Source: Candidatus Staskawiczbacteria bacterium (GTDB lineage: Bacteria; Patescibacteriota; Minisyncoccia; Minisyncoccales; Staskawiczbacteraceae). Taken from it: 64,000 nucleotides of DNA. The notes below the pieces were generated by a model. It worked only from the letters and a program-made list of their open reading frames with translations. It made no database searches and had not been told where the DNA came from. How positions within the stretch are numbered: the first letter of the stretch is position 1; the number at the start of each line of letters is the position of its first letter. The DNA lies in contig JAPLYZ010000007.1 in NCBI GenBank assembly GCA_026395295.1, positions 66,518-130,517 on the forward strand, written 5' to 3'. Both the position numbers and the translations under genes were made by a program. Positions 4,677-54,182 of this stretch are shown piece by piece.

Positions 4677-6725
4677 ATGAAAAGCTTAGTTATAGTTGAG
4701 AGCCCGACAAAGGCGAAGACAATTCAAAAATTTTTGGGAAGCGACTTTATTATCAAGTCGTCTTTTGGACATGTCAGAGATTTGCCCAAAAGAGAGCTTG
4801 GCGTTGATGTTGAAAACGGATTTCAACCAAAATATGTTATACCGACAAAGGCAAAAAAAGTTGTTGCTGAACTGAAAAAAGAATCAGCCAAGGCAGACAC
4901 CACCATACTGGCGACCGACGAAGACCGCGAGGGTGAATCAATTGCCTGGCACTTGCAAGAGGCCCTAAAATTAAAAGATCCTCAAAGGATTGTGTTTCAT
5001 GAAATTACCAAACCTGCAATAGAAAAAGCTCTTGAGAAGCCGAGGCATATTGATATGAATTTGGTCGATGCGCAACAGGCAAGACGCATTTTAGACAGAA
5101 TTGTGGGATACAAGATTTCGCCATTTCTATGGAAAAAAGTTGCCAAAGGTCTCTCGGCCGGTAGAGTACAATCAGTTGCCGTAAGATTAGTTGTAGAAAG
5201 AGAAAGAGAAATTGAAAAATTTGTCCCGACAGAATACTGGTCAATTGAAGCATTGCTAAAAAAGTTGGACAAAAAATTTAACGCCCTGTTGATAAAAAAA
5301 GACGATAAACCTGTTGAAAAGCTGGAAATTAAGAATAAAAATGAAGCAGATAAAATTTTACAAGATTTGAACAGCGCCGATTATATTGTTGAGTCTGTAG
5401 AAAAAAAGGAAACAAAAAGGTATCCTGCTCCCCCGTTCACCACAAGCACTTTGCAACAAGCGTCTTGGCAAAGATTTAAATTTTCGGCAAAAATGACAAT
5501 GTCCTTAGCTCAAAGGCTCTACGAAGAAGGAAACATTACCTATCACAGAACCGATTCATTGAATCTTTCTGAGATGTCTCTGGGTGAAGCCCAAAATTTC
5601 ATCACCGAAAAATATGGTCAAAATTATTGGGCAGGAAAAATAGTAAAATATAAAACCAAAGATAAGGGAGCCCAAGAAGCCCATGAAGCAATCAGACCGG
5701 CTTATGCCGACAAAACTCCCGAATCGCTAAAAGGCTTGGATGCCAGACAATTAAAGCTCTACACTTTAATTTGGCAAAGATTTATCGCCTGCCAAATGGC
5801 TCCTGCTATTTTCGATTCTGTTTTAACGGATATAAAAGCCCGTTCGACAAGCTCAGGACAAGCCGAAAGCTACACTTTCAGGGCCAACGGACAAACAGTG
5901 AAGTTTGATGGATTCTTGAAGGTTTACCCAACGAAAACCGAGGAAACAGAATTGCCCGACTTGGAAAAAAATGACAAATTAGATCTTTTGAAATTAAATT
6001 CTGTCCAGCATTTCACAGAACCGCCGGCAAGATACACGGAAGCCAGTTTGGTGAAAATTCTAGAGAAACACGGCATAGGCAGACCATCAACCTATGCGCC
6101 AATCATTTCCACCATACAAGACAGAAATTATGTCAGTAAAAACGACCAAAAAAGATTCTTTCCAAGCGAAATGGGAATAATAGTCAACGATGTTTTGGTA
6201 AAAAACTTCCCGGAAATTGTTGATGTTGATTTTACGGCAAAAATGGAAAAGGAGCTAGACGAAGTGGCTGACGGCAAAGACACATGGGAAAAAACTTGCA
6301 AAGATTTTTATAAACCATTCGCCAAAAATTTAGAGGAAAAATATAAAGAAGTGGTAAAATCCGATTTGATAAAAAAGACAGACAAGGTTTGCCCTAAGTG
6401 CGGAGCTCCCTTAATTGAACGGCTTGGGAGATTTGGCAGATTCTACGCCTGTTCAAAATTTCCGGAGTGCAAACACACAGAATCAGTTGAAGGAGACCCC
6501 GATACTTTGAATATAACCTGCCCAAAATGCAAAGAAGGAAAAATAACCGGAAAAAGGACCAGAAAGGGAAAAACATTTTATGGATGCGACCGTTTTCCAA
6601 AGTGCGACTTTGCTTTGTGGGATAAACCCATAAACGAATTTTGTCCGAAATGCGACTCTTTATTGATACAGAAAAGCAAAAACAAAATAAAGTGCTCAAA
6701 TAAAGAGTGCGATTATGTCAAATGA
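4677..6725 (+). CDS. topA: DNA topoisomerase I
   Basis: Toprim N-terminus MKSLVIVESPTKAKTI, catalytic core, C-terminal Cys4 zinc ribbons. Confidence 0.9.
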   Translation: MKSLVIVESPTKAKTIQKFLGSDFIIKSSFGHVRDLPKRELGVDVENGFQPKYVIPTKAKKVVAELKKESAKADTTILATDEDREGESIAWHLQEALKLKDPQRIVFHEITKPAIEKALEKPRHIDMNLVDAQQARRILDRIVGYKISPFLWKKVAKGLSAGRVQSVAVRLVVEREREIEKFVPTEYWSIEALLKKLDKKFNALLIKKDDKPVEKLEIKNKNEADKILQDLNSADYIVESVEKKETKRYPAPPFTTSTLQQASWQRFKFSAKMTMSLAQRLYEEGNITYHRTDSLNLSEMSLGEAQNFITEKYGQNYWAGKIVKYKTKDKGAQEAHEAIRPAYADKTPESLKGLDARQLKLYTLIWQRFIACQMAPAIFDSVLTDIKARSTSSGQAESYTFRANGQTVKFDGFLKVYPTKTEETELPDLEKNDKLDLLKLNSVQHFTEPPARYTEASLVKILEKHGIGRPSTYAPIISTIQDRNYVSKNDQKRFFPSEMGIIVNDVLVKNFPEIVDVDFTAKMEKELDEVADGKDTWEKTCKDFYKPFAKNLEEKYKEVVKSDLIKKTDKVCPKCGAPLIERLGRFGRFYACSKFPECKHTESVEGDPDTLNITCPKCKEGKITGKRTRKGKTFYGCDRFPKCDFALWDKPINEFCPKCDSLLIQKSKNKIKCSNKECDYVK

Positions 6726-8493
6726 TTTAGAAAAAATATTAAAGCAACTGACCGATAAAGCCCACCCCGTCATACGACGGGGTGCCCCATCGAATGATGG
6801 GGCAAAATTGATTTCTACGGCTTTTGAATTCGCGACACAAGCGTATAAAGAAAAAAATAGGCTGTCCGGAGAAAATTATATTTTTCATGCCGCAAGAGTC
6901 GCCTTGATGCTCGATAAAATGAACCTTGACTCAACGACAATTGCTTTTGGAATACTCCACGACGTTTTAGACGATACTCCTACCTCTGCCAAAAAAATAG
7001 AAATAAAAGAGATTGAAAAAAAGTTCGGGAAAGAAATGGGCCACTTGGTTGAGAAAACCTCAGAGTTAAGCAGGGTGAGATATTCTCTCATAATTGGAAT
7101 GAAAGACAAAAAGGCTTTTACAAAAGAGAAAGCTGAAAATCTGAGGAGAATGTTTCTTGCAATATCTGGAGACCTGAGAGTTGTCCTAATAGAGCTTTTA
7201 TCAAGATTAGACGGGCTAAACTTGTTGCACTATCTGCCGGAAGATAAACAAAAATTATTCTCTCTTGAAACTTTACAAATTTTCGTGCCGGTGGCTAACA
7301 GACTTGGCTTGTCTGAGATAAGAAGGAAGCTTGAAGACTTAGCCTTTTCTCATCTGTTCCCGGATAGGTTCAAGTGGCTGAAAGAAAACATCAAGAGCCA
7401 GTATGAAGAACGAGAAAAATATTTGAAGAAATTTATTCCTCGGCTAAAAAAAATATTGAGAAAAGAGGGGGTAAAAATTCTCGACATAAATTACCGTGCA
7501 AAATCTTATTGGAGCGCCTATCAGAAATTAATGAAACACCAGATGAACTTTGACGAAGTCCACGACTTGCTTGCGCTAAGAATAATTACGGCCGATGTTG
7601 AGAGTTGCTACAGGGTGCTAGGCATAATACATAAGCATTTTAAACCTATATCCGAAGAAATAAACGACTACATAGCGAAACCAAAGCCCAATGGTTACCG
7701 ATCGCTGCATACAACAATTTTCTCCAATGAAAACAAGATAACTGAGATTCAGATAAGAACAGATGAAATGCACAAAGAGGCAGAGTATGGTGTTTGCGCC
7801 CACTGGTCTTACAAAGAAAAAATAGACCTCAAAAAAGAAGGAAAAAACTTTGAGTGGGTGGAATCTGTTCCGGAGTTTTGGAAAACCTTTAAAATAGACT
7901 TTTTCGCGAATCAAGTTTTTACTTTTACCCCAAGAGGAGACATTGTTGTACTTCCCAAAAATTCAACTCCAATTGATTTTGCTTATGCGGTTCATTCAGA
8001 GATTGGAAATCATTGCGAATCCGCAAAAATAGACGGAAAAATTGTCCAGCTCGATAGCATCTTAAAAAACGGAGATGTGGTGGAAATATCCATTAATAAA
8101 AATAAAATCCCGTCAAAAGATTGGATGCGGTTTGTCAGAACATCTCTTGCGAAATCACATATAAAAAAGATAACAGGAGAAGACAAACCCGGCTTCAGGT
8201 TCCCATTACCGGAATTCATAAGAAAAAGAATCACAGAATTTTCCGAAGCCTCCAAAAAAAGACAGCAGGAGAGACAAAAAGCCAAAGAAGGAACTCCAAA
8301 ACAAATATATTTGGCAGGGCAAAAAGGAATGCTGACCCACATTGCCAAATGTTGCAATCCCCAGCCCGGCGACAAGGTTAGCGGGTATCTAGCCCAAAAC
8401 AGATCCGCTGTTTTGCACAAAACATCCTGCGACAATTTCAAAAAAATAGCTGAAAAATTCCCGGGGAAAATTGTCGACGCTTCATGGCAATAG
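6715..8493 (+). CDS. rel: bifunctional (p)ppGpp synthetase/hydrolase Rel/SpoT
   Basis: HD hydrolase domain (HAARVA...HDVLDDT), RelA/SpoT synthetase domain (YRSLHTT), TGS domain. The N-terminus carries an in-frame double-hairpin repeat. Confidence 0.85.
   Translation: MSNDLEKILKQLTDKAHPVIRRGAPSNDGAKLISTAFEFATQAYKEKNRLSGENYIFHAARVALMLDKMNLDSTTIAFGILHDVLDDTPTSAKKIEIKEIEKKFGKEMGHLVEKTSELSRVRYSLIIGMKDKKAFTKEKAENLRRMFLAISGDLRVVLIELLSRLDGLNLLHYLPEDKQKLFSLETLQIFVPVANRLGLSEIRRKLEDLAFSHLFPDRFKWLKENIKSQYEEREKYLKKFIPRLKKILRKEGVKILDINYRAKSYWSAYQKLMKHQMNFDEVHDLLALRIITADVESCYRVLGIIHKHFKPISEEINDYIAKPKPNGYRSLHTTIFSNENKITEIQIRTDEMHKEAEYGVCAHWSYKEKIDLKKEGKNFEWVESVPEFWKTFKIDFFANQVFTFTPRGDIVVLPKNSTPIDFAYAVHSEIGNHCESAKIDGKIVQLDSILKNGDVVEISINKNKIPSKDWMRFVRTSLAKSHIKKITGEDKPGFRFPLPEFIRKRITEFSEASKKRQQERQKAKEGTPKQIYLAGQKGMLTHIAKCCNPQPGDKVSGYLAQNRSAVLHKTSCDNFKKIAEKFPGKIVDASWQ
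6765..6803. repeat. double-hairpin repeat element (copy A) inside rel coding sequence
   Basis: CCCCGTCATACGACGGGG + GCCCCATCGAATGATGGGGC. A related copy lies at 54045-54086 with compensatory stem changes. Confidence 0.6.
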
Positions 8494-8503
8494 GCTCGGG
8501 TAA

Positions 8504-8532
8504 TTGAAAACTGGCGAAAAACATGATAGATT
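8504..8532 (+). promoter_or_regulatory. sigma70-like promoter upstream of tRNA-Leu 5' fragment / GIY-YIG / tRNA-Leu unit
   Basis: TTGAAA -N17- TAGATT, about 9 nt before the G that starts the tRNA-like sequence at 8542. Confidence 0.35.
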
Positions 8533-8541
8533 ATAAGCAAT

Positions 8542-8605
8542 GCCGAGGTGGCGGAATTAGCAGACGCACGGGACCTGCCTGCCGGCAGGCAGGCTCAAAA
8601 TCCCG
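8542..8605 (+). other. partial duplicate of tRNA-Leu 5' half (acceptor, D-arm, anticodon stem/loop) with a 20-nt palindromic hairpin inserted in the anticodon loop
   Basis: 8542-8574 is identical to 8851-8883. A 20-nt CTGCCTGCCGGCAGGCAGGC insertion sits between loop positions 32 and 33, followed by TCAAAATCCCG. The T-arm and acceptor 3' strand are missing. Confidence 0.6.
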
Positions 8606-8613
8606 ATACGCAT

Positions 8614-8850
8614 ATGTACTATGTCTATATAATAAAAAGTGAAAAAAGGAATTATAATTACGTTGGAATTACCAACAATCCCGAGCGACGGATAAAAGAA
8701 CATAATCGAGGATATAATAGAATAACTAAGCCCTATAAACCTTTTAAAATAATATTAATTGAGAAACATTTTGATAGAACCGAAGCCAGAAAAAGAGAAA
8801 AATTTCTAAAATCTGGATATGGCAAAGAATACGTTAAAGGCATCCAATAA
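8614..8850 (+). CDS. GIY-YIG nuclease family protein (UPF0213/YhbQ-like)
   Basis: YYVYIIKSEKRNYNYVGITNNPERRIKEHN...KPFKII, a GIY-YIG motif; 78 aa from the internal ATG. The ORF-track start at 8548 lies inside the tRNA fragment. Confidence 0.8.
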   Translation: MYYVYIIKSEKRNYNYVGITNNPERRIKEHNRGYNRITKPYKPFKIILIEKHFDRTEARKREKFLKSGYGKEYVKGIQ

Positions 8851-8934
8851 GCCGAGGTGGCGGAATTAGCAGACGCACGGGACTCAAAATCCCGCGACAG
8901 CAATGTCATGAGGGTGCAACTCCCTCCCCCGGCA
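8851..8934 (+). tRNA. tRNA-Leu (anticodon CAA), type II with long variable arm
   Basis: Cloverleaf folded by hand: acceptor GCCGAGG/CCCCGGC (one A-C mismatch), anticodon loop CTCAAAA, long variable arm. The T-loop TGCAACT is non-canonical with G at position 55. Discriminator A; CCA not encoded. Confidence 0.75.
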
Positions 8935-8936
8935 CA

Positions 8937-28164: not shown

Positions 28165-28743
28165 TTAAGTCTTTCTTTTTTTAGAAGCTATTTCCAACAA
28201 TTTCTGCTTAGCATGCTCGTATTCCCCGTCAAGAATGGCTTTTATCTCCGGCTCAATTTTATCCCAATCTCTCGCCAGTTTTTCGGCAAGTGTTTGGTAC
28301 ACCGCCACCTCTAAAATTCCCCGGTCTTCCACCTGGACCCGCCACAGCTCCTCCAAATTTCCGAAATGTTCTATTGCGTCCGCCGCCGCTACACATTTCG
28401 CTTCAATTGTTTGAAATGCAATCCTTTGGCTTCCACGATGAGAATAAACGGCGCTTATTATTGGTCCTATCAACGGCAAGGGACATCCGCACTTAAGCAG
28501 AATCGGCCCAGCTTCTTGCGCTCCGGTAATATGATGGTTTTCCTTTCCATATTTCGCCGCTCCCACGTCGTGAAGAAGACCTCCTGCTTCAGCGACGAAC
28601 TTATCTCCCTGCATTTTTCCCGCAAAGTCTTTTGCATATTGCGCGACCCGTTGAGCGTGCCGCCAAATAAAAAGTTTGTAGTGAGGGCTGGACAGGTAAA
28701 TCGGTTTTACTTCCCTTCTTATTCTTCTGATGACGCATTCCAT
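28165..28743 (-). CDS. HD-domain phosphohydrolase
   Basis: H..HD motif (LLHDVG); higher GC than neighbouring genes. Confidence 0.6.
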   Translation of the reverse strand: MECVIRRIRREVKPIYLSSPHYKLFIWRHAQRVAQYAKDFAGKMQGDKFVAEAGGLLHDVGAAKYGKENHHITGAQEAGPILLKCGCPLPLIGPIISAVYSHRGSQRIAFQTIEAKCVAAADAIEHFGNLEELWRVQVEDRGILEVAVYQTLAEKLARDWDKIEPEIKAILDGEYEHAKQKLLEIASKKRKT

Positions 28744-28878: not shown

Positions 28879-28914
28879 ATACGTTTTATTCTGCGGTCGC
28901 AGAATTCAGCGTAT
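28879..28914. repeat. palindromic repeat family P36 copy (imperfect arms)
   Basis: ATACGTTTTATTCTGCGGTCGCAGAATTCAGCGTAT, upstream of the HD gene. Shares the CGCCTTAGTCT flank with the 25344 copy. Confidence 0.65.
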
Positions 28915-28990
28915 CTGATATTTTCAATTGTTAATTGATTTATTTTGCTTTCTTAAAAATCAAATTTCCATTTATTGCTTTCGATCATAT

Positions 28991-29400
28991 AAAAAAATGC
29001 GCACGTCCTTTTGGTCGTGCGCTTTGTGCCAACTTGGAATGTTTCATCCTTCGCGAGACAGTCGGCGTGCCTATGGTCAGAAGACCATCCGTTGTTTCCC
29101 ATAAAAGCGTGAGCTCATACGGGTGATAAAATCCCTGTTCTCGGGGGTACAGCGGCGATTCCCTAAAAAGCAAAACCACTTTGTTCCTTGCGCATCTGTC
29201 CCTACCTAGTATGGAGGTATCAGCGCAAAATTCTGCTTTTCTGAAGAACAGCACCCACATGGCAGCACGGGTTTTCCCTTTTTATACCCGAAGGGTTCCC
29301 CGTGTGTGGGCTTTGAGCATACCAGGATTTTAGCGGGCGATGATATATCTCATAGGCATATCCTTTCTTGTCAAAGAGCAAACCATTTGCTCCGTACCTT
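28991..29400 (-). ncRNA. unassigned structured ncRNA candidate (GC-rich island, no plausible ORF)
   Basis: About 50% GC in a roughly 37% GC genome. Candidate promoter TTGACA -N17- ATTATA near 29430 on the minus strand. Clean terminator GCGCACG..CGTGCGC + T7 at 28991-29022. Only spurious ORFs cross it. Confidence 0.35.
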
Positions 29401-29484
29401 TATAATAATCCTAATCCCTATTTTGTCAAAACAAAAACCCAAAAGAATAACTTCGGACTTTGTTTCTAGAAAAATAAACCTTTT

Positions 29485-31146
29485 TTATTGGACGATGCCG
29501 CCGCCGGAGTTGGCAAAGTCATCTGGCAAGCTTGTGGTTATTCCAGAATCTTGGGCCGTGATAGTTGTATTTGTAAACTGGTTTTCTCCTGAAATTTGAG
29601 CCTGACCTATAAGAGGCGCCTGTGATCCTTTTTGCGAATTGGTCGGAGTAAGAGAAACTTGGAAAGAAAGAGAAATTGGGTCACCGGTCACCCCTGTTCC
29701 AGCCTGCACATCGCCAACTGACCAAACAATTTCGCGACTGGCTGAATCAAAAGAAAAATTTGATAACTCGTCCTGCGGCATAATTTTTCCGGTCAAACTT
29801 ACATTTGCCGGCAGAATTGCTTTTAACTTAACGTTTTTGGCGTCGCTGAAATAATTTTTAATTTCCCAATTTATTGTGTAAGTGGTTGCTTTGCCTGCCT
29901 GCGGAGGAATTGGTCCGGAATTGGAAATGTCGGAGCTCTGATAATATGCTCTTTGAGAAATCACCAACCCTGAGCTTACTTTTATTGTGAACTTTTGGGT
30001 TATCTGAGAAATATTTACTTCGTCAGTAATAACAGTGTTACTTGCGTCAATCGCCGACGAACTCCAGTTGTCTTTCACCTTCACGTTAAAATCAACTTCG
30101 CCTTGCTGCTGAACAGCCAAATGACTTAACTGCGAAGACTGGCTGTGGTCCCAAATAATCATGTTATCATTTTGCTGGACTTGACCTCCCGCCTCGGCTT
30201 GCAAAGTAGACAAATCCAAAGCCGGGCTGTCAATTTTTGCCACCAAAAATAAATCTTCAAAAGGGGTTGACCCAACATTGGTGAAAAAAATCTGATAATG
30301 AAGGGTCTCGCCGGGTTTGGCAACATAAGAAGATGAACTATTAACCAGCTGGGAAATAAACAGCAACGGCTGTATTGCCTGCGCAGTAACGCTGGCTTCT
30401 TTCACAACAATAAAACTTCCGTTCTGCCACATTCCCAGTTTCGCCGAAAAAATTAAACTCTGGCTGGTAGCTGCCGAAATTCTGCCCGAGATTGTAATTC
30501 TTCCTCCTTGCGCCTTGTTCAAGGTTTGCAGTTTCCATTCTAAATTATCCAAAGACTTCGGGTCAGATGATATAAAATCAAAACCGGGCATAGGGTCAAC
30601 TTTTATGCTCAAATTTTCCAGCGGATAGTTTACATTGGAAAAATAATTAATTGAGTACTGTAAATTTTTTCCTTGCTCCACCTTAGTTGGCAAATCGAAA
30701 TCCAAAGTAATAGGGCTTGCATCAATTTTAGTTATAAAAGTTGTGTCCGACTCGTAGGTGGCTGTTATATTTTTGGGCACATAAGAAAGCGATGCTTTGG
30801 CGGTTTTCAAATCTCCATCTTTGCCCAAAAGTCTGGCTTTAATTTTTACCGACTCCTGACCTCCAGGATATATATCTTTTAAACTCTGCACAAACATTGT
30901 CCTGCTGTCTTCGGTCAGAGAGTTGTCCGGCAAAATAAAAACTAACTTCGCTTTCTCTAAAACAAAGTTGCCGTTATTTTTGTATTGCACTGTATATTCT
31001 ATCTCGTCTCCTATTTTGGCTGTGCTGGGCCCAAAAATTTCCAGCCTCAAAATTTCTTTTGAAAACATACTGCTCTTGTAATACAAGAACACCGCCAACA
31101 CCACTATTATAATTATAAACAAAATTAAAAGTATTTTTTTCGCCAT
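29485..31146 (-). CDS. cell-surface protein with N-terminal TM anchor and DUF11-like (CARDB-like) repeats
   Basis: Signal-anchor followed by repeated beta-rich modules (Y.I...N.G pattern). Confidence 0.55.
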   Translation of the reverse strand: MAKKILLILFIIIIVVLAVFLYYKSSMFSKEILRLEIFGPSTAKIGDEIEYTVQYKNNGNFVLEKAKLVFILPDNSLTEDSRTMFVQSLKDIYPGGQESVKIKARLLGKDGDLKTAKASLSYVPKNITATYESDTTFITKIDASPITLDFDLPTKVEQGKNLQYSINYFSNVNYPLENLSIKVDPMPGFDFISSDPKSLDNLEWKLQTLNKAQGGRITISGRISAATSQSLIFSAKLGMWQNGSFIVVKEASVTAQAIQPLLFISQLVNSSSSYVAKPGETLHYQIFFTNVGSTPFEDLFLVAKIDSPALDLSTLQAEAGGQVQQNDNMIIWDHSQSSQLSHLAVQQQGEVDFNVKVKDNWSSSAIDASNTVITDEVNISQITQKFTIKVSSGLVISQRAYYQSSDISNSGPIPPQAGKATTYTINWEIKNYFSDAKNVKLKAILPANVSLTGKIMPQDELSNFSFDSASREIVWSVGDVQAGTGVTGDPISLSFQVSLTPTNSQKGSQAPLIGQAQISGENQFTNTTITAQDSGITTSLPDDFANSGGGIVQ

Positions 31147-31270
31147 AGTTTTTTATATGTTAAATTCGTTATTTTTTTGTATAGCTATTGACAAGGACAT
31201 ATAAAATGATAACATTAACTTACTAAACGTGGGGCGGATTCTATATGAGTCCGTCCCATTTACTTTTACT

Positions 31271-31921
31271 TTATTTTTTCTTATCTTCCATTTTCAGCAT
31301 ATATTTCAAATATTCAAAATCCCTAAAATTGCTTCCTGCGAACTGACGAATTTCTCTGGCAGTCCTTGGTCCTCTGGCTAAAACTACAACTTCTTTTTTC
31401 TGCTCTCTCAGATATTTCAAAACCGGTAAAAAATCACCATCGCCAGATAAAACTATAATCTTATCAAAATTATCCATTTCTTTCATCAGATAAAAAGTCA
31501 TGTCAACATCGCAATTTGCTTTCCTCTTGCTTACTAACATCTGTTGGTCTTCGTCATAATCATAATATAATTTTACCGGCTTTAAATGCAACTCATAGCC
31601 GAAACTTTTTAATTTCGAATAAAATTTTATCCTCTTTAGATGCCGATTTATCAATATCAATTTTACGTCATCAAGTTTATCGCTTTTGTTTTTTATCTTG
31701 TCCAATAAATGTCTTGCCACATCTTCAATCGGCACAGTATCTTGAAGTAGATAATTATAGTTGAAATCATATATTTCCGCCCCGCCAAAATACAACGCCC
31801 TTGATATACCATATTTTTCTTTCAAGTAATTCAAAAGCTTCTGATAGTCAATTTTCCAGCCTAAACTTTTCTCCCCGCCATAAAAAAGATTAGAAGCATC
31901 AATAAAAACAAACGTCCTCAT
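31271..31921 (-). CDS. NYN domain (LabA-like PIN-related) protein
   Basis: FIDASNL..., LSGDGDF acidic motifs typical of NYN/LabA. Confidence 0.7.
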   Translation of the reverse strand: MRTFVFIDASNLFYGGEKSLGWKIDYQKLLNYLKEKYGISRALYFGGAEIYDFNYNYLLQDTVPIEDVARHLLDKIKNKSDKLDDVKLILINRHLKRIKFYSKLKSFGYELHLKPVKLYYDYDEDQQMLVSKRKANCDVDMTFYLMKEMDNFDKIIVLSGDGDFLPVLKYLREQKKEVVVLARGPRTAREIRQFAGSNFRDFEYLKYMLKMEDKKK

Positions 31922-31954
31922 ATTTTTATTCTACTGCACTTTAACCAAAAAAGC

Positions 31955-31985
31955 GAGCTTAAGCTCGCTTTGTTAAGCTCTCTTT
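31955..31985. terminator. palindromic hairpin flanked by A- and T-runs (bidirectional terminator candidate)
   Basis: AAAAAAGCGAGCTTAAGCTCGCTTTGTT. Confidence 0.4.
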
Positions 31986-32148
31986 TATTCGTTAACCTAA
32001 TCTCAATTCCATTATTGCATAGAATTTATTAAAAGTAAAAAAAGAAGCGGTCTTCCACAAGGTGAGTTGTGAAAAACCGCTTTTTGGCCGCGAACGAAAG
32101 ATTCAAGGAATAAGAATTCGAAAGAATCAAGCGTTTGAGGCTTGAGGG

Positions 32149-33147
32149 TTACTGCGAGACGAACCCCGACGCAGAGCCGAAGTTGTCGCTCGGGCTGGAC
32201 ACATCGTCCGCGCCGAACTTGGCCTCGACGCTGAAGCCGAAGTACGGAGCGTGGCCGAACCGACCATCGCAGTCATCGGAGAATTCGTCGCCGGCCATGT
32301 CCATGTCCAGCTCTTCCCAGCGAACGAGGCGTTCCGGATGAACCAGAACGATTGAGCCTCCAGCGACGCTGGTAAGGCCGTACTCGCCCTTGGTGAAAGA
32401 TTCGCGTGCGAGACCGACGCAGTATCCGCCCCAACGCTTACCGAGCTGGCAAGCCTGAATACGGAAATCGCCTTGCTGTTGGTCCCGCATCTTCTGCATA
32501 ACTTCCCGAGTGTGCTGAGAGACGCGGATGTGAGCCGCGTCAATCTGGTTTTCGCGCCAGTTCGTGAACGAACGCGATTCGGCAATCTTCTGAAAGATGA
32601 GCTGCAGCGCCCGGCAGTACATCTCGGCGGGGTCTTTGACCTCGGGAAAATACTTTCGGGATAGCGCATCCTCCCACGGAACAAGGAATGCTCCTTCCAC
32701 CCAATTAGGTAGTGCGATTTTCTGCTGCACGTCCCTGTAGTAGCGAAACGCAGGTTCGGGGTCGAACCCGGGAAAATGCCGAAGCATCACCTCTGCCTGT
32801 TGCTGCATGGATTTGGGACCCTTGTACTCGCGCGGATAGTCGTAGGCCGGCCGAACCTTCTTACCCGCGTACTTGCTCTGTGGAGCGCGATGCTCCTCTA
32901 TCCAAGTAGCGATGTGTTCGGAGAGGCCAGGCGTGTCGTTAATACGCTGAGCTTCCCCTTCTGTACCATCTGACAAGCCGGCTTTATCGTAAGCGGCTGT
33001 CACGATTGACACGAACTTGAGACCTTTCGAGTCCCGTGATGTGACTGACGGAGCCAATTTTTGCATCGGAGCCATCCTTTCTACCGCGTTAAACGCGGTT
33101 TTCAATGTGCGTGTTGCGAATGCCCCGCAACAGGGCGTCCTAAACAT
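32149..33147 (-). CDS. hypothetical protein on a GC-rich (about 58% GC) foreign-looking segment
   Basis: Sharp GC and codon-usage shift (GC3-rich codons) confined to the ORF body. Putative extended -10 TGnTATAAT at 33166-33176 (minus strand). Terminator hairpin + T-run at about 32033-32079. Start is ambiguous (33147 or 33075). No recognisable family. Confidence 0.5.
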   Translation of the reverse strand: MFRTPCCGAFATRTLKTAFNAVERMAPMQKLAPSVTSRDSKGLKFVSIVTAAYDKAGLSDGTEGEAQRINDTPGLSEHIATWIEEHRAPQSKYAGKKVRPAYDYPREYKGPKSMQQQAEVMLRHFPGFDPEPAFRYYRDVQQKIALPNWVEGAFLVPWEDALSRKYFPEVKDPAEMYCRALQLIFQKIAESRSFTNWRENQIDAAHIRVSQHTREVMQKMRDQQQGDFRIQACQLGKRWGGYCVGLARESFTKGEYGLTSVAGGSIVLVHPERLVRWEELDMDMAGDEFSDDCDGRFGHAPYFGFSVEAKFGADDVSSPSDNFGSASGFVSQ

Positions 33148-33190
33148 TGTGTTCAGTATGCATTTATTATATCAAATAGTGGTTTTTATG

Positions 33191-33955
33191 TCAATGGTGA
33201 TAATTATTTTTGGAGGAATGGCCGGACAATATGTAAGCATAATAATTTTCGGAAACGTTTTCAAATAATTTTTGGCTGGACACCTCAATTTTTAATTTTG
33301 ACAGCATCTGCCAATCCTTCTTAAAAATCAATCTGAAAATTTTCACGATATCAGAATTTATCTTGGTCGCAGAGGCGTCGTGTCCTAAACACTTTTTGCA
33401 AATAGTCCCGCCAATTTTATCGGAAAAATAGATTGCGTATGGATTAAGTTTCTGCTGACATATATTACATTTTTCCACCTGAGGATGGTAACCCAACAGA
33501 GAAAGGAGACTCCACAAAAAATAATAATACAAAGCTTGGAACTTGGAACTTGGAACTTGGAACTTATCCAGCGTGGTAAATGTTTCGTTTAATAAGTTGA
33601 AGACATTTTCATCTTTTTGCTCGCCTTTTATAAAATTATCTAAAACTTCGCCTATTCTATTGGCAGTTTTAAATTTTTCTAAATCCTGCCAGACATTATT
33701 GAATTTTTCTGTTGCCACCGCATCTGTGAGAGTCTTTCGCGTCTTGCCCTGTATAAATTCTATCTCCGACATAAAAAAAATATCAATCCCGCTTCTTAGC
33801 TTAGAGGCTGTTTTCCTTATAGCCTTGCCAAAAATTTCCAGCCTGCCGAATTCTTCGGTAAAAACAGAAAAAAACCTGTCCGACTCGCCCATGTCGCTTT
33901 TCTTAAAAACAAAAGCTCTTGTTTTATATTTTAAAGCCATGCTATTTGATGCCAC
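33191..33955 (-). CDS. recO: DNA repair protein RecO
   Basis: OB-fold N-terminus and Cys4 zinc motif (CNICQQK...CKKC). Contains an in-frame heptamer repeat. Confidence 0.8.
   Translation of the reverse strand: MASNSMALKYKTRAFVFKKSDMGESDRFFSVFTEEFGRLEIFGKAIRKTASKLRSGIDIFFMSEIEFIQGKTRKTLTDAVATEKFNNVWQDLEKFKTANRIGEVLDNFIKGEQKDENVFNLLNETFTTLDKFQVPSSKFQALYYYFLWSLLSLLGYHPQVEKCNICQQKLNPYAIYFSDKIGGTICKKCLGHDASATKINSDIVKIFRLIFKKDWQMLSKLKIEVSSQKLFENVSENYYAYILSGHSSKNNYHH
33534..33564. repeat. CTTGGAA heptamer tandem repeat (x4) inside recO, encoding KFQVPSSKFQ
   Basis: cttggaacttggaacttggaacttggaactt; the coding strand reads GTTCCAA. Confidence 0.65.
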
Positions 33956-42958: not shown

Positions 42959-43405
42959 ATGAAGATATTTAGTGAAAATAAAAAAGCGGGGTTTGATTAT
43001 GAAGTCCTGGAAAGGTTTGAGGCAGGGCTGGTTTTGTTTGGCCAAGAGGTAAAATCCATAAAAACCGGACATATAAATTTATCTGGAGCTTACGTGAGTT
43101 TGGCGTCAGGCGAGCCTTTTTTGGTGGGGGTAAAAGTGCCTCCCTACCAGCCAAATAATGCCGGAGCCGGCTACAACGACGAACGTCAAAGAAAGCTTCT
43201 TCTAAACAAAAAAGAGATTGATTATTTGCAAGGAAAGACAAAAGTTAAGGGTTTTTCGCTTATACCCTTGAAAGTTTACGAAAAGAGTGGTAGGATAAAG
43301 CTCGAATTCGGATTAGCCCGCGGTAAGAAGAAATTTGATAAAAAAGAGAAAATAAAAAAGAGAGACGTGGAAAGAGAGGTTAATCGCGAATTATCAAGGG
43401 AGTGA
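42959..43405 (+). CDS. smpB: SsrA-binding protein
   Basis: FDYEVLERFEAGLVLFGQEVKS... canonical SmpB sequence. Confidence 0.9.
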   Translation: MKIFSENKKAGFDYEVLERFEAGLVLFGQEVKSIKTGHINLSGAYVSLASGEPFLVGVKVPPYQPNNAGAGYNDERQRKLLLNKKEIDYLQGKTKVKGFSLIPLKVYEKSGRIKLEFGLARGKKKFDKKEKIKKRDVEREVNRELSRE

Positions 43406-43751
43406 ATGTTTCGATGGATAGTTTTTTTGAGTAAGGCAAGTTGAGCTTTCTTGGGGCTCGTTAATATCCGGGAAAAAACATAATTGCTAATTTATTTAAC
43501 TTTAATAAGCAACCAGCGTTAGCTTTCGCTTAATGCTGCATCCTTACCGTTGACTCCTAATAAACGGACCAAGGGTGTTATATTATTAGGATAGGCATTT
43601 CATTTCTCCGGTGACTTGCCGAAACTAAGGAGATAAGGCGTTAAAAATTTTGTTAATTCTTTATTTAACGTTCGAACACCAGAATTAACTAAACTTGTAG
43701 AATTGCTTTCAAAAACTTTTCAGACGCGAGTTCAATCTCGCCACTTCCACA
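43398..43751 (+). ncRNA. ssrA: tmRNA (ssrA)
   Basis: 5' GGGAGUGAAUGUUUCGAUGG resembles the tmRNA 5' end. 3' tRNA-like end GACGCGAGTTCAATCTCGCCACTTCCA, with acceptor GGGAGTG/CACTTCC pairing. Tag ORF 43486-43533 encodes ANLFNFNKQPALAFA*. Overlaps the smpB stop codon. Confidence 0.7.
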
Positions 43752-43782
43752 CTTCGACAAACTCAGTGTAAACCAAAAAACT

Positions 43783-54095: not shown

Positions 54096-54168
54096 GAACC
54101 ATTAGTGTCCCCGAGCTGATTTGAACAGCTATTTTTTCCTTCGGAGGGAAATGTTCTATCCAATTGAA
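54096..54168 (-). tRNA. tRNA-Arg (anticodon CCG)
   Basis: Acceptor GTCCCCG/CGGGGAC, D-arm GTTC..GAAC, anticodon loop CTCCGAA, T-arm AGCTG-TTCAAAT-CAGCT, discriminator A. Confidence 0.8.
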
Positions 54169-54182
54169 CTACGGGGACGAAA

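Follow-up and report, generated by a model that had tools for sequence, protein, structure and literature searches.

The GC-rich island that separates recO from a NYN-domain gene in the window (the whole 64-kb stretch of DNA analysed here, part of a 162.7-kb contig) is very probably a partial cassette of a diversity-generating retroelement (DGR). It carries the target gene of a Patescibacteria-wide protein family together with its promoter, leader, 3' spacer and terminator, and it appears to be an orphan copy whose GC-richness is not a foreign mark. The initial annotation had read the same island quite differently, as a gene recently acquired from a high-GC donor and given local expression signals.

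Architecture of the GC-rich cassette

The compositional break at the island is sharp. GC content is 0.571 in the ORF at 32149-33147 (minus strand) as compared with 0.384 across the whole window, and the 1-kb bin at 32001-33000 (GC 0.550) stands out with z = 7.1 as the sole outlier of 64 bins, the remaining 63 having a mean GC of 0.382, a standard deviation of 0.024 and a maximum of 0.443. The 300-nt windows flanking the ORF return to a GC of 0.30-0.36, in accordance with the claimed fall to about 35%. The reported shift in GC3 and codon usage holds as well, because GC at codon positions 1, 2 and 3 is 0.62, 0.43 and 0.67 in the window gene versus 0.44, 0.33 and 0.38 in the flanking ORFs.

In AT-rich genomes, GC-rich stretches are often RNA genes or misjoins, and long antisense ORFs do occur in the target family, both of which would fit an artefact in the form of an assembly chimera or of a GC-rich structured RNA with a long ORF arising by chance. 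However, both GC boundaries are 100% identical in six independently assembled contigs (six runs, two accession series), with the identical stretch extending from 33564/33776 down to 28889-32073, and this agreement over both junctions excludes the chimeric assembly for which a check had been advised. The six assemblies were located by exact-sequence look-up and are consensus sequences, in which minority variants are invisible. A chance ORF is further contradicted by hundreds of sequences in which ~300 aa are conserved at the protein level and synonymous sites are saturated. As for a structured RNA, the mRNA body folds no more stably than expected (z = +0.06 and -1.1) and a search of Rfam gave no match. 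We therefore assign an artefact of either kind next to no probability.

The cassette is made up of the following parts.

33166..33194, minus strand: promoter, consensus sigma-70 (TTGACA, 17-nt spacer, TG-extended TATAAT; 12/12 match)
33067..33160, minus strand: structured 5' leader with three hairpins, 52% GC (fold z = -3.1)
33081..33075, minus strand: Shine-Dalgarno GAAAGGA at the 3' end of the leader, before the ATG
32149..33066, minus strand: CDS of the DGR variable (target) protein, 305 aa plus stop, 57% GC, with its start ATG at 33066
32151..32285, minus strand: variable region (VR), the last ~45 codons, homologous to the template repeats (TRs) of relatives
32127..32145, minus strand: inverted repeat TCAAGC..GCTTGA directly after the stop, in the position of the post-IMH inverted repeat of DGR targets
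32036..32082, minus strand: intrinsic terminator, 16-pair stem plus T-run (hairpin and T-run at 32082..32045; 3' segment fold z = -4.1)
31988..32148, minus strand: 3' spacer, 37% GC, homologous to the VR-TR spacer of complete cassettes

The 332-aa ORF proposed previously is too long. The N-termini of homologues, the Shine-Dalgarno sequence and the conserved structured leader all point to the ATG at 33066 as the start codon, so that the protein has 305 aa, and the first 27 codons of the longer reading frame are 5' leader RNA. The hairpins of this leader are kept in relatives, with compensatory substitutions in hairpins 2 and 3. No hydrophobic segment was obvious by eye at the N-terminus of the window protein. 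At the other end, the acidic motif EELDMDMAGDEFSDDCD is indeed present, as had been pointed out; its reading needs correction, since it is conserved in the family and leads into the hypervariable C-terminal region.

The gene does have its own promoter and terminator. The promoter, matching the consensus at 12/12 positions, is stronger than had been described, and the terminator consists of the expected hairpin and T-run. What does not hold is their description as local signals. Nucleotide homology to the cassettes of relatives (L090-L095, L077 and L006) spans 33194 to 31988, that is, from the -35 hexamer, where the promoter forms the left edge of the conserved cassette, to ~160 nt past the stop codon. 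Because this homology includes both the promoter and the terminator, they are part of the mobile unit and not local additions. In blastn comparisons with L090, L091, L092 and L077 the homology ends at 31988, and in the relatives the TR, Avd and RT come after the point matching this position; in L092 the TR starts ~230 nt further. Promoters matching at least 11/12 consensus positions were found upstream of 44% of family members versus 7% of other genes in the same loci. Just behind the stop codon, the bases CCTCAAGC, which hold the 5' arm of the inverted repeat, are conserved in L092. By analogy with the DGR literature (PMC5758913), the inverted repeat of the window may play a role in homing.

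A Patescibacteria family of DGR variable proteins

Searches of the window protein against Pfam, PHROGs, PADLOC and NCBIfam, and a PDB sequence-profile search, revealed no significant match, consistent with the earlier statement that it has no recognisable motif. The homology search advised at that time was thus negative for the curated libraries, and it was the genomic context of 291 homologues that identified the family. These homologues, ~300 aa in length, were obtained by searching 5.8 billion proteins with the window protein, and the named ones all belong to Patescibacteria (Staskawicz-, Wolfe-, Pace-, Jorgensenbacteria and others). A profile search of 1.84 billion cluster representatives gave 1,908 members at E <= 1e-3 and 734 at E <= 1e-30, and the Patescibacteria-wide family comprises ~1,900 clusters at 50% identity.

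We assembled 84 gene-centred regions, consisting of 80 loci from species-representative genomes, three reached via homologues, and the window. Since L003 and L010 are the same genome contig, the distinct loci number 83. Downstream of the gene in L001 come, in this order, a 131-nt direct repeat of the gene's 3' end, bAvd and a reverse transcriptase (RT), and all mismatches between the two repeat copies (18/18) lie at adenines of the downstream copy. This arrangement recurs in relatives, where bAvd and RVT_1 genes adjoin the target and the RT carries GNLTSQ and YTDD motifs; an RT lies within ~2 kb in about half of the 84 loci. A canonical ~130-nt TR is present in 35 loci, with 666 of 683 mismatches (97.5%) at template adenines. 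Furthermore, two sequences of the same strain taken from two samples (L179 and L180) differ at 13 nt in 20,894 bp, all of them within the VR, and this difference is DGR activity in situ. Because TR/VR mismatches at adenines and variation confined to the VR are the behaviour that defines DGRs, the family is a family of DGR variable proteins.

The family alignment is in accordance with this assignment, with well conserved first ~250 residues and hypervariability only in the last ~45. The family core (residues ~60 to the end) has a C-type-lectin-like fold; a Foldseek search against the PDB gave no significant match. The ~60-aa helical N-terminus that precedes the core is extra, poorly predicted and missing in many family members. 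The window protein is homologous over its whole length to demonstrable DGR targets, sharing 46-63% identity over ~300 aa with P0013, P0005, P0051, P0087 and P0097, all five of which lie in complete cassettes. In function and by homology, the window gene is a target of the Patescibacteria-restricted DGR clade, and the window locus is a further example of known DGR targets.

DGRs restricted to this part of the bacterial tree have been described as the 'CPR set' of Wu et al. 2018 (PMC5758913) and as the 'clade 2' of Roux et al. 2021 (PMC8144416), the latter being Patescibacteria-restricted and having targets without recognisable domains. The family studied here has in common with these sets the host group, the cassette of target, TR, Avd and GNLTSQ RT, the A-to-N pattern between TR and VR, the C-terminal position of the VR, and the absence of a recognisable Pfam or transmembrane domain. 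Location of cassettes among ribosomal-protein genes is also shared, the L003 cassette lying between rpsJ and rplC, and the same association is found in PMC5758913. The window copy differs in having no TR, Avd or RT within 64 kb, and a family-wide excess of target GC3 over that of its own RT was not found mentioned in the literature searched on these DGRs. As a separate observation, an antisense ORF was called in L003 and is not conserved in the window.

Two known targets offer further comparison. TvpA (Treponema denticola variable protein 1, PDB 2y3c), which has an FGE-type C-type-lectin fold, shares with the family a core of ~240 aa and a C-terminal VR, whereas sequence similarity between them is undetectable, the Foldseek comparison is not significant, and our family adds the ~60-aa helical N-terminus. 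With Mtd of Bordetella phage BPP-1, the prototype target, the family has in common a mechanism that would consist of adenine-specific mutagenic retrohoming into the C-terminal VR of a C-type-lectin fold, as well as an IMH-like conserved 3' end with a downstream inverted repeat (PMC5758913). Unlike Mtd, the host is cellular and not a phage, the protein is not a tail fibre, and the target is GC-rich compared with both host and RT, which was unseen in the other 57 of 60 IMG/VR DGR loci.

The neighbourhood of the window copy had led to a different suggestion, namely a toxin, a defence gene or a phage moron coupled to the adjoining NYN nuclease gene. The latter does give weak PADLOC matches (NYN, 2.4e-09; HEC-09, 3.4e-06), and the cassette occupies a hotspot of accessory genes, a variable spot between recO and the NYN gene. 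In the sister genomes L176, L177 and L178, whose RecO is 70-72% identical, the gene order is IleRS, a hypothetical gene, RecO and a DUF11-type repeat protein, and the interval between RecO and the DUF11-type gene is empty in L176 and filled with unrelated ORFs in L177 and L178. No family gene, RT or NYN gene was found within 6 kb in any of the three. The target and the NYN gene are thus lineage-specific insertions in a variable spot, and the inspection of sister genomes that had been recommended identifies the island as an accessory insertion. However, the window protein matches no PADLOC family (0 families) and nothing significantly in PHROGs, Pfam or NCBIfam. The NYN neighbour is not conserved either: such a gene adjoins the family gene in none of the other 83 loci, where three weak matches lie more than 7 kb away, and the conserved partners of the family are Avd, RT and TR. 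A function as toxin, defence gene or moron is therefore highly unlikely, and we continue with the gene as a DGR target.

A target copy apart from its retroelement

The window contains none of the partners of a complete cassette. No TR-like repeat was detected in the 64 kb by blastn (word size 7), and neither an RT nor an Avd by tblastn. We compared the VR with the TRs of L092, L090, L091, L077 and L006, to which it is 70-85% identical. Using these heterologous TRs, the differences were found to concentrate on template adenines: against the L092 TR, 12 of 18 mismatches lie at adenines, although A makes up 22% of this TR (binomial p = 7e-5). When the TRs of relatives are compared with one another, divergence spares adenines and falls mostly on non-A positions. 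Since the mismatches of the window VR prefer TR adenines while TR-TR divergence spares them, we infer that the window VR went through adenine mutagenesis.

Diversification confined to the VR was observed in the family, between L179 and L180, and not in the window copy at the consensus level, where the VR is identical in the six assemblies and no contig breaks inside it. None of the matches among 5.8 billion proteins combined near-identity with a different VR, the next one being 75% identical. An intermediate state of decay is represented by P0004, a 63%-identical relative that has the target and a 157-aa RT remnant and no Avd. The window copy is probably a frozen orphan.

Based on the cassettes of relatives, we propose the following course of events. 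The ~130-nt TR downstream of the target would be transcribed, and the adjoining Avd/RT pair would copy the TR RNA into cDNA, making errors opposite adenines only. This cDNA would swap out the last ~45 codons of the target and so repaint the ligand-binding face of the C-type-lectin-like domain. The window copy would then have lost its TR, Avd and RT, or have been copied without them, and, now seemingly frozen, it would be expressed like any other protein, its binding specificity fixed.

It is also conceivable that the window gene is a remote but active target, diversified in trans by a complete DGR elsewhere in the genome that recognises the VR by its conserved 3' end and by the hairpin that follows. 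The Treponema DGR has several non-adjacent targets. Wu et al. count seven of them, and non-adjacent and remote DGR targets are documented (PMC5758913). In our family, 14 of the 28 copies flanked on each side by 8 kb or more have no nearby RT (none within 8-10 kb), so remote targeting could be the norm rather than a sign of decay. The window copy would be equipped for such targeting, in that the 3' end of its VR and the post-stop inverted repeat are intact, as are its strong promoter and leader. A search for an RT of the window genome itself gave more than 7,800 matches to a Staskawiczbacteria RT query, the traceable Staskawiczbacteria entries among them being on other accessions or contigs. 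Against an active target stand a VR that is unbroken and identical across six assemblies from two accession series, whereas the VR of an RT-linked relative differs between two samples, and the lack of a near-identical protein bearing another VR. As the window covers 64 kb of the genome and half of the well-flanked copies are without a nearby RT, we regard diversification in trans as unlikely, yet deserving of appreciable weight, and prefer the frozen orphan. Because the window locus has no cognate TR, no RT/Avd pair and no observed diversification, we label the gene 'orphan (or remote) DGR variable-protein gene'.

Composition of the target gene

High GC is common to the entire target family. 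In all 83 distinct loci the target exceeds its 5-kb flanks in GC content, with a median excess of +0.156 (range +0.011 to +0.278), in hosts whose flanks range from 0.29 to 0.55 GC. Mean GC3 is 0.70 in the target, 0.44 in host ORFs and 0.43 in the adjacent RT; the host-like value of the RT indicates that it is only the target gene, and not the retroelement as a whole, that is compositionally foreign. The GC block has its edges at the start codon and the stop codon. GC3 varies little over the length of the gene (0.63-0.74) and is 0.81 in the VR. Codons ending in C or G are strongly preferred (TTC 0.78, TAC 0.80, ATC 0.71, AAG 0.73, CAG 0.77), the opposite of the hosts' usage. Among members with less than 50% amino-acid identity, four-fold sites are 0.34-0.36 identical versus 0.29 by chance. 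Because these sites are near saturation, the GC bias is a maintained equilibrium and not a relic.

These data bear directly on the high-GC donor, according to which the gene was transferred recently, was fitted with local signals and still carries the donor's signature in its GC content. Such a transfer would account for the sharp compositional contrast and for sister genomes in which the same site is empty of the gene, and a hint of target exchange lies in the fact that the target co-diverges weakly with the RT (r = 0.25; Mantel 166/2000, n = 19), less so than Avd does (r = 0.77). However, composition-matched homologues in high-GC genomes were not found: the homologues with names, like almost all of the loci retrieved, are Patescibacteria records, and among the few bins with another label no flank exceeds 55% GC. 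Nor is the composition transient, since GC3 is still near 0.7 with synonymous sites close to saturation within the family. In addition, the gene lies above host GC in every one of the 83 loci (hosts 29-55% GC), the co-resident RT is host-like in composition, and promoter, leader and spacer travel with the gene. Taken together, the 83 GC-richer loci, the host-like RT and the near-saturated four-fold sites imply that high GC is a maintained property of the family and not a donor signature, making a recent high-GC donor very improbable. What remains of the earlier claim is the acquisition of a self-contained cassette, which is absent in sister genomes.

The island resembles classical transferred islands in its atypical GC and codon usage, its presence or absence among sisters and its own expression signals. 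It differs from them in that the atypical composition is confined to the ORF and common to every family member whatever the GC of the host. Because it is ORF-confined, family-wide and persists despite near-saturated synonymous divergence, composition neither dates the transfer nor identifies its source.

Several candidate explanations of the GC3 excess were considered and rejected. Host translational selection is contradicted by L003, in which the ribosomal-protein and EF-Tu operon genes favour T/A-ending codons (GC3 0.32-0.49) and the target has a GC3 of 0.80. Excess RNA structure in the ORF body was rejected, as the body folds no better than shuffles (z values as given above for the mRNA body). 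A general property of DGR targets was likewise rejected: across 60 IMG/VR DGR loci the GC3 excess has a mean of +0.034 and a median of +0.007, and the large outliers are L097 and L099, which are members of the target family, and L104, an unassigned partial ORF. Simple adenine avoidance does not fit, because third-position T is depleted nearly like A (A, 0.13 versus 0.26 in the host; T, 0.19 versus 0.30). Decay of GC3 in orphans was not supported, the excess being 0.21 in orphans versus 0.26 in RT-linked copies, a difference that is not significant (p = 0.17).

We tentatively consider that a gene-specific force keeps the target family at ~70% GC3 in genomes of 29-55% GC, be it selection on the nucleic acid, GC-biased conversion or an unrecognised requirement of retrohoming; the possibility is a serious one, if somewhat short of even. 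Such a force is implied by a block that is delimited by the start and stop codons, has outlasted synonymous turnover close to saturation, and is absent in the RT, Avd, ribosomal-protein genes and other DGR targets. One candidate cause is selection for an abundant, nuclease-resistant mRNA, which fits the consensus promoters, the strong terminator and the hairpins close to the 5' end; bacterial mRNAs gain stability from 5' stem-loops and a low AU content. Another candidate is GC-biased conversion in a gene that often recombines or whose alleles are exchanged, which fits the weak co-divergence of target and RT. In the DGR literature searched, no mention of a target-only GC excess was found, and GC deviation of DGRs is taken there as nothing more than an indication of horizontal transfer. 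Of our findings, only the family's compositional behaviour may be new.

For annotation, a 'hypothetical', foreign-looking gene can now be named as a DGR variable protein, present as an orphan copy, and its start codon can be corrected. With ~1,900 clusters at 50% identity and no Pfam or NCBIfam model, the family merits one. With regard to method, it provides a clear counter-example to dating horizontal transfer, or tracing its source, by deviations in GC or codon usage. The orphan copies indicate that diversified binding proteins can persist after their diversifier has been lost or has moved. If the gene-specific force is real, the orphan in the window would be a natural test of whether the GC3 excess decays once the retroelement is gone. 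The excess in the target alone could inform how these very abundant retroelements or their transcripts work in ultra-small bacteria.

Complete and active DGR cassettes in relatives

A complete DGR cassette of the family, comprising RT, Avd, template repeat (TR) and target, was found at 5947-8900 of a contig from a Paceibacterota genome (L003/L010, the same contig). It is inserted between rpsJ (S10) and rplC (L3), within the ribosomal-protein operon, in agreement with the association of DGRs with ribosomal genes noted by Wu et al. 2018 (PMC5758913). Separately, two family members are annotated by JGI as 'ribosomal protein S16'.

Comparison of two 20.9-kb loci representing the same strain in two samples (L179 and L180) revealed 13 differences, all of which lie in the variable region (VR); the DGR of this strain is active. 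Restriction-modification, Vsr and Fic genes are clustered on one side of this DGR, and a prophage-like block with genes for an SU10 major capsid, an adaptor and an amidase lies on the other.

Cassette variation and the conserved core of the family

Across the 42 loci in which an RT gene adjoins the family member, roughly half of the RT frames are short or split, at 122-236 aa versus ~349 aa, as exemplified by locus L001 and by the 157-aa remnant in L093-L095. Either the retroelement decays frequently, or the frames were disrupted by indel errors in long-read assemblies.

In seven loci (L012, L029, L030, L043, L046, L069 and L075, inverted in the last), the 3' end of the target recurs as a paralogous second copy ~1.1-1.3 kb from the first. 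The copies are matches of 200-238 nt whose mismatches are mixed rather than A-specific. Some cassettes thus carry two targets.

Many representatives across the family are ~235-250 aa long and begin at profile position ~57-71. The N-terminal ~60 residues that they lack coincide with the part of the predicted model that has low confidence. The conserved core of the family is therefore ~240 aa.

Leader of the target gene and other features of the window

The GC-rich target gene of the window is preceded by a conserved leader, and we located several further features:

33067-33160, (-): 5' leader of the target gene, three conserved hairpins
28165-28743, (-): HD-domain gene, GC locally raised (0.46-0.51)
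28990-29430, (-): candidate ncRNA stretch, ORF-free, ~400 nt, GC up to 0.50
43398-43752, (+): tmRNA gene
8851-8935: tRNA-Leu(CAA)
54105-54178: tRNA-Arg(CCG)

Hairpins 2 and 3 of the leader show compensatory changes. The leader element GCACAUUG could possibly pair with the SD/first-AUG region, which would occlude the ribosome-binding site, and the leader may play a role in mRNA stabilisation or translation regulation.

The stretch at 28990-29430, downstream of a DUF11-type repeat-protein gene, is a candidate for an unknown small or medium ncRNA. It has TTGACA-17-TATTAT at its 5' side and a GC hairpin plus T7 at its 3' end, and its folding gave z = -2.9. No match to Rfam was found, and among the loci compared the sole match to an exact 40-mer from this stretch was the same-strain contig.

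The slot downstream of recO

The slot is occupied differently in the window and in two sister genomes (L177 and L178):

31271-31921 of the window, (-): NYN-domain gene neighbouring the target, 32% GC
6808-8901 of L177: ORF of 697 aa, GC 0.48 versus 0.40 for the locus
4716-6116 of L178: ORF of 466 aa, GC 0.48 versus 0.38 for the locus

The NYN-domain gene gave weak PADLOC matches (NYN, 2.4e-09; HEC-09, 3.4e-06), is likewise missing at the same site in the sister genomes and looks like an independent accessory gene. The L177 and L178 ORFs, unrelated ones that occupy this hotspot in the sister genomes, are also GC-elevated over their own loci; a Pfam search with them returned no match. Four independent Logan contigs begin at window position 33564, inside recO, and two stop at 32073, inside the terminator hairpin. 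Since these breaks recur across independent contigs, they suggest that strain-level variants of this region exist in the sampled populations.
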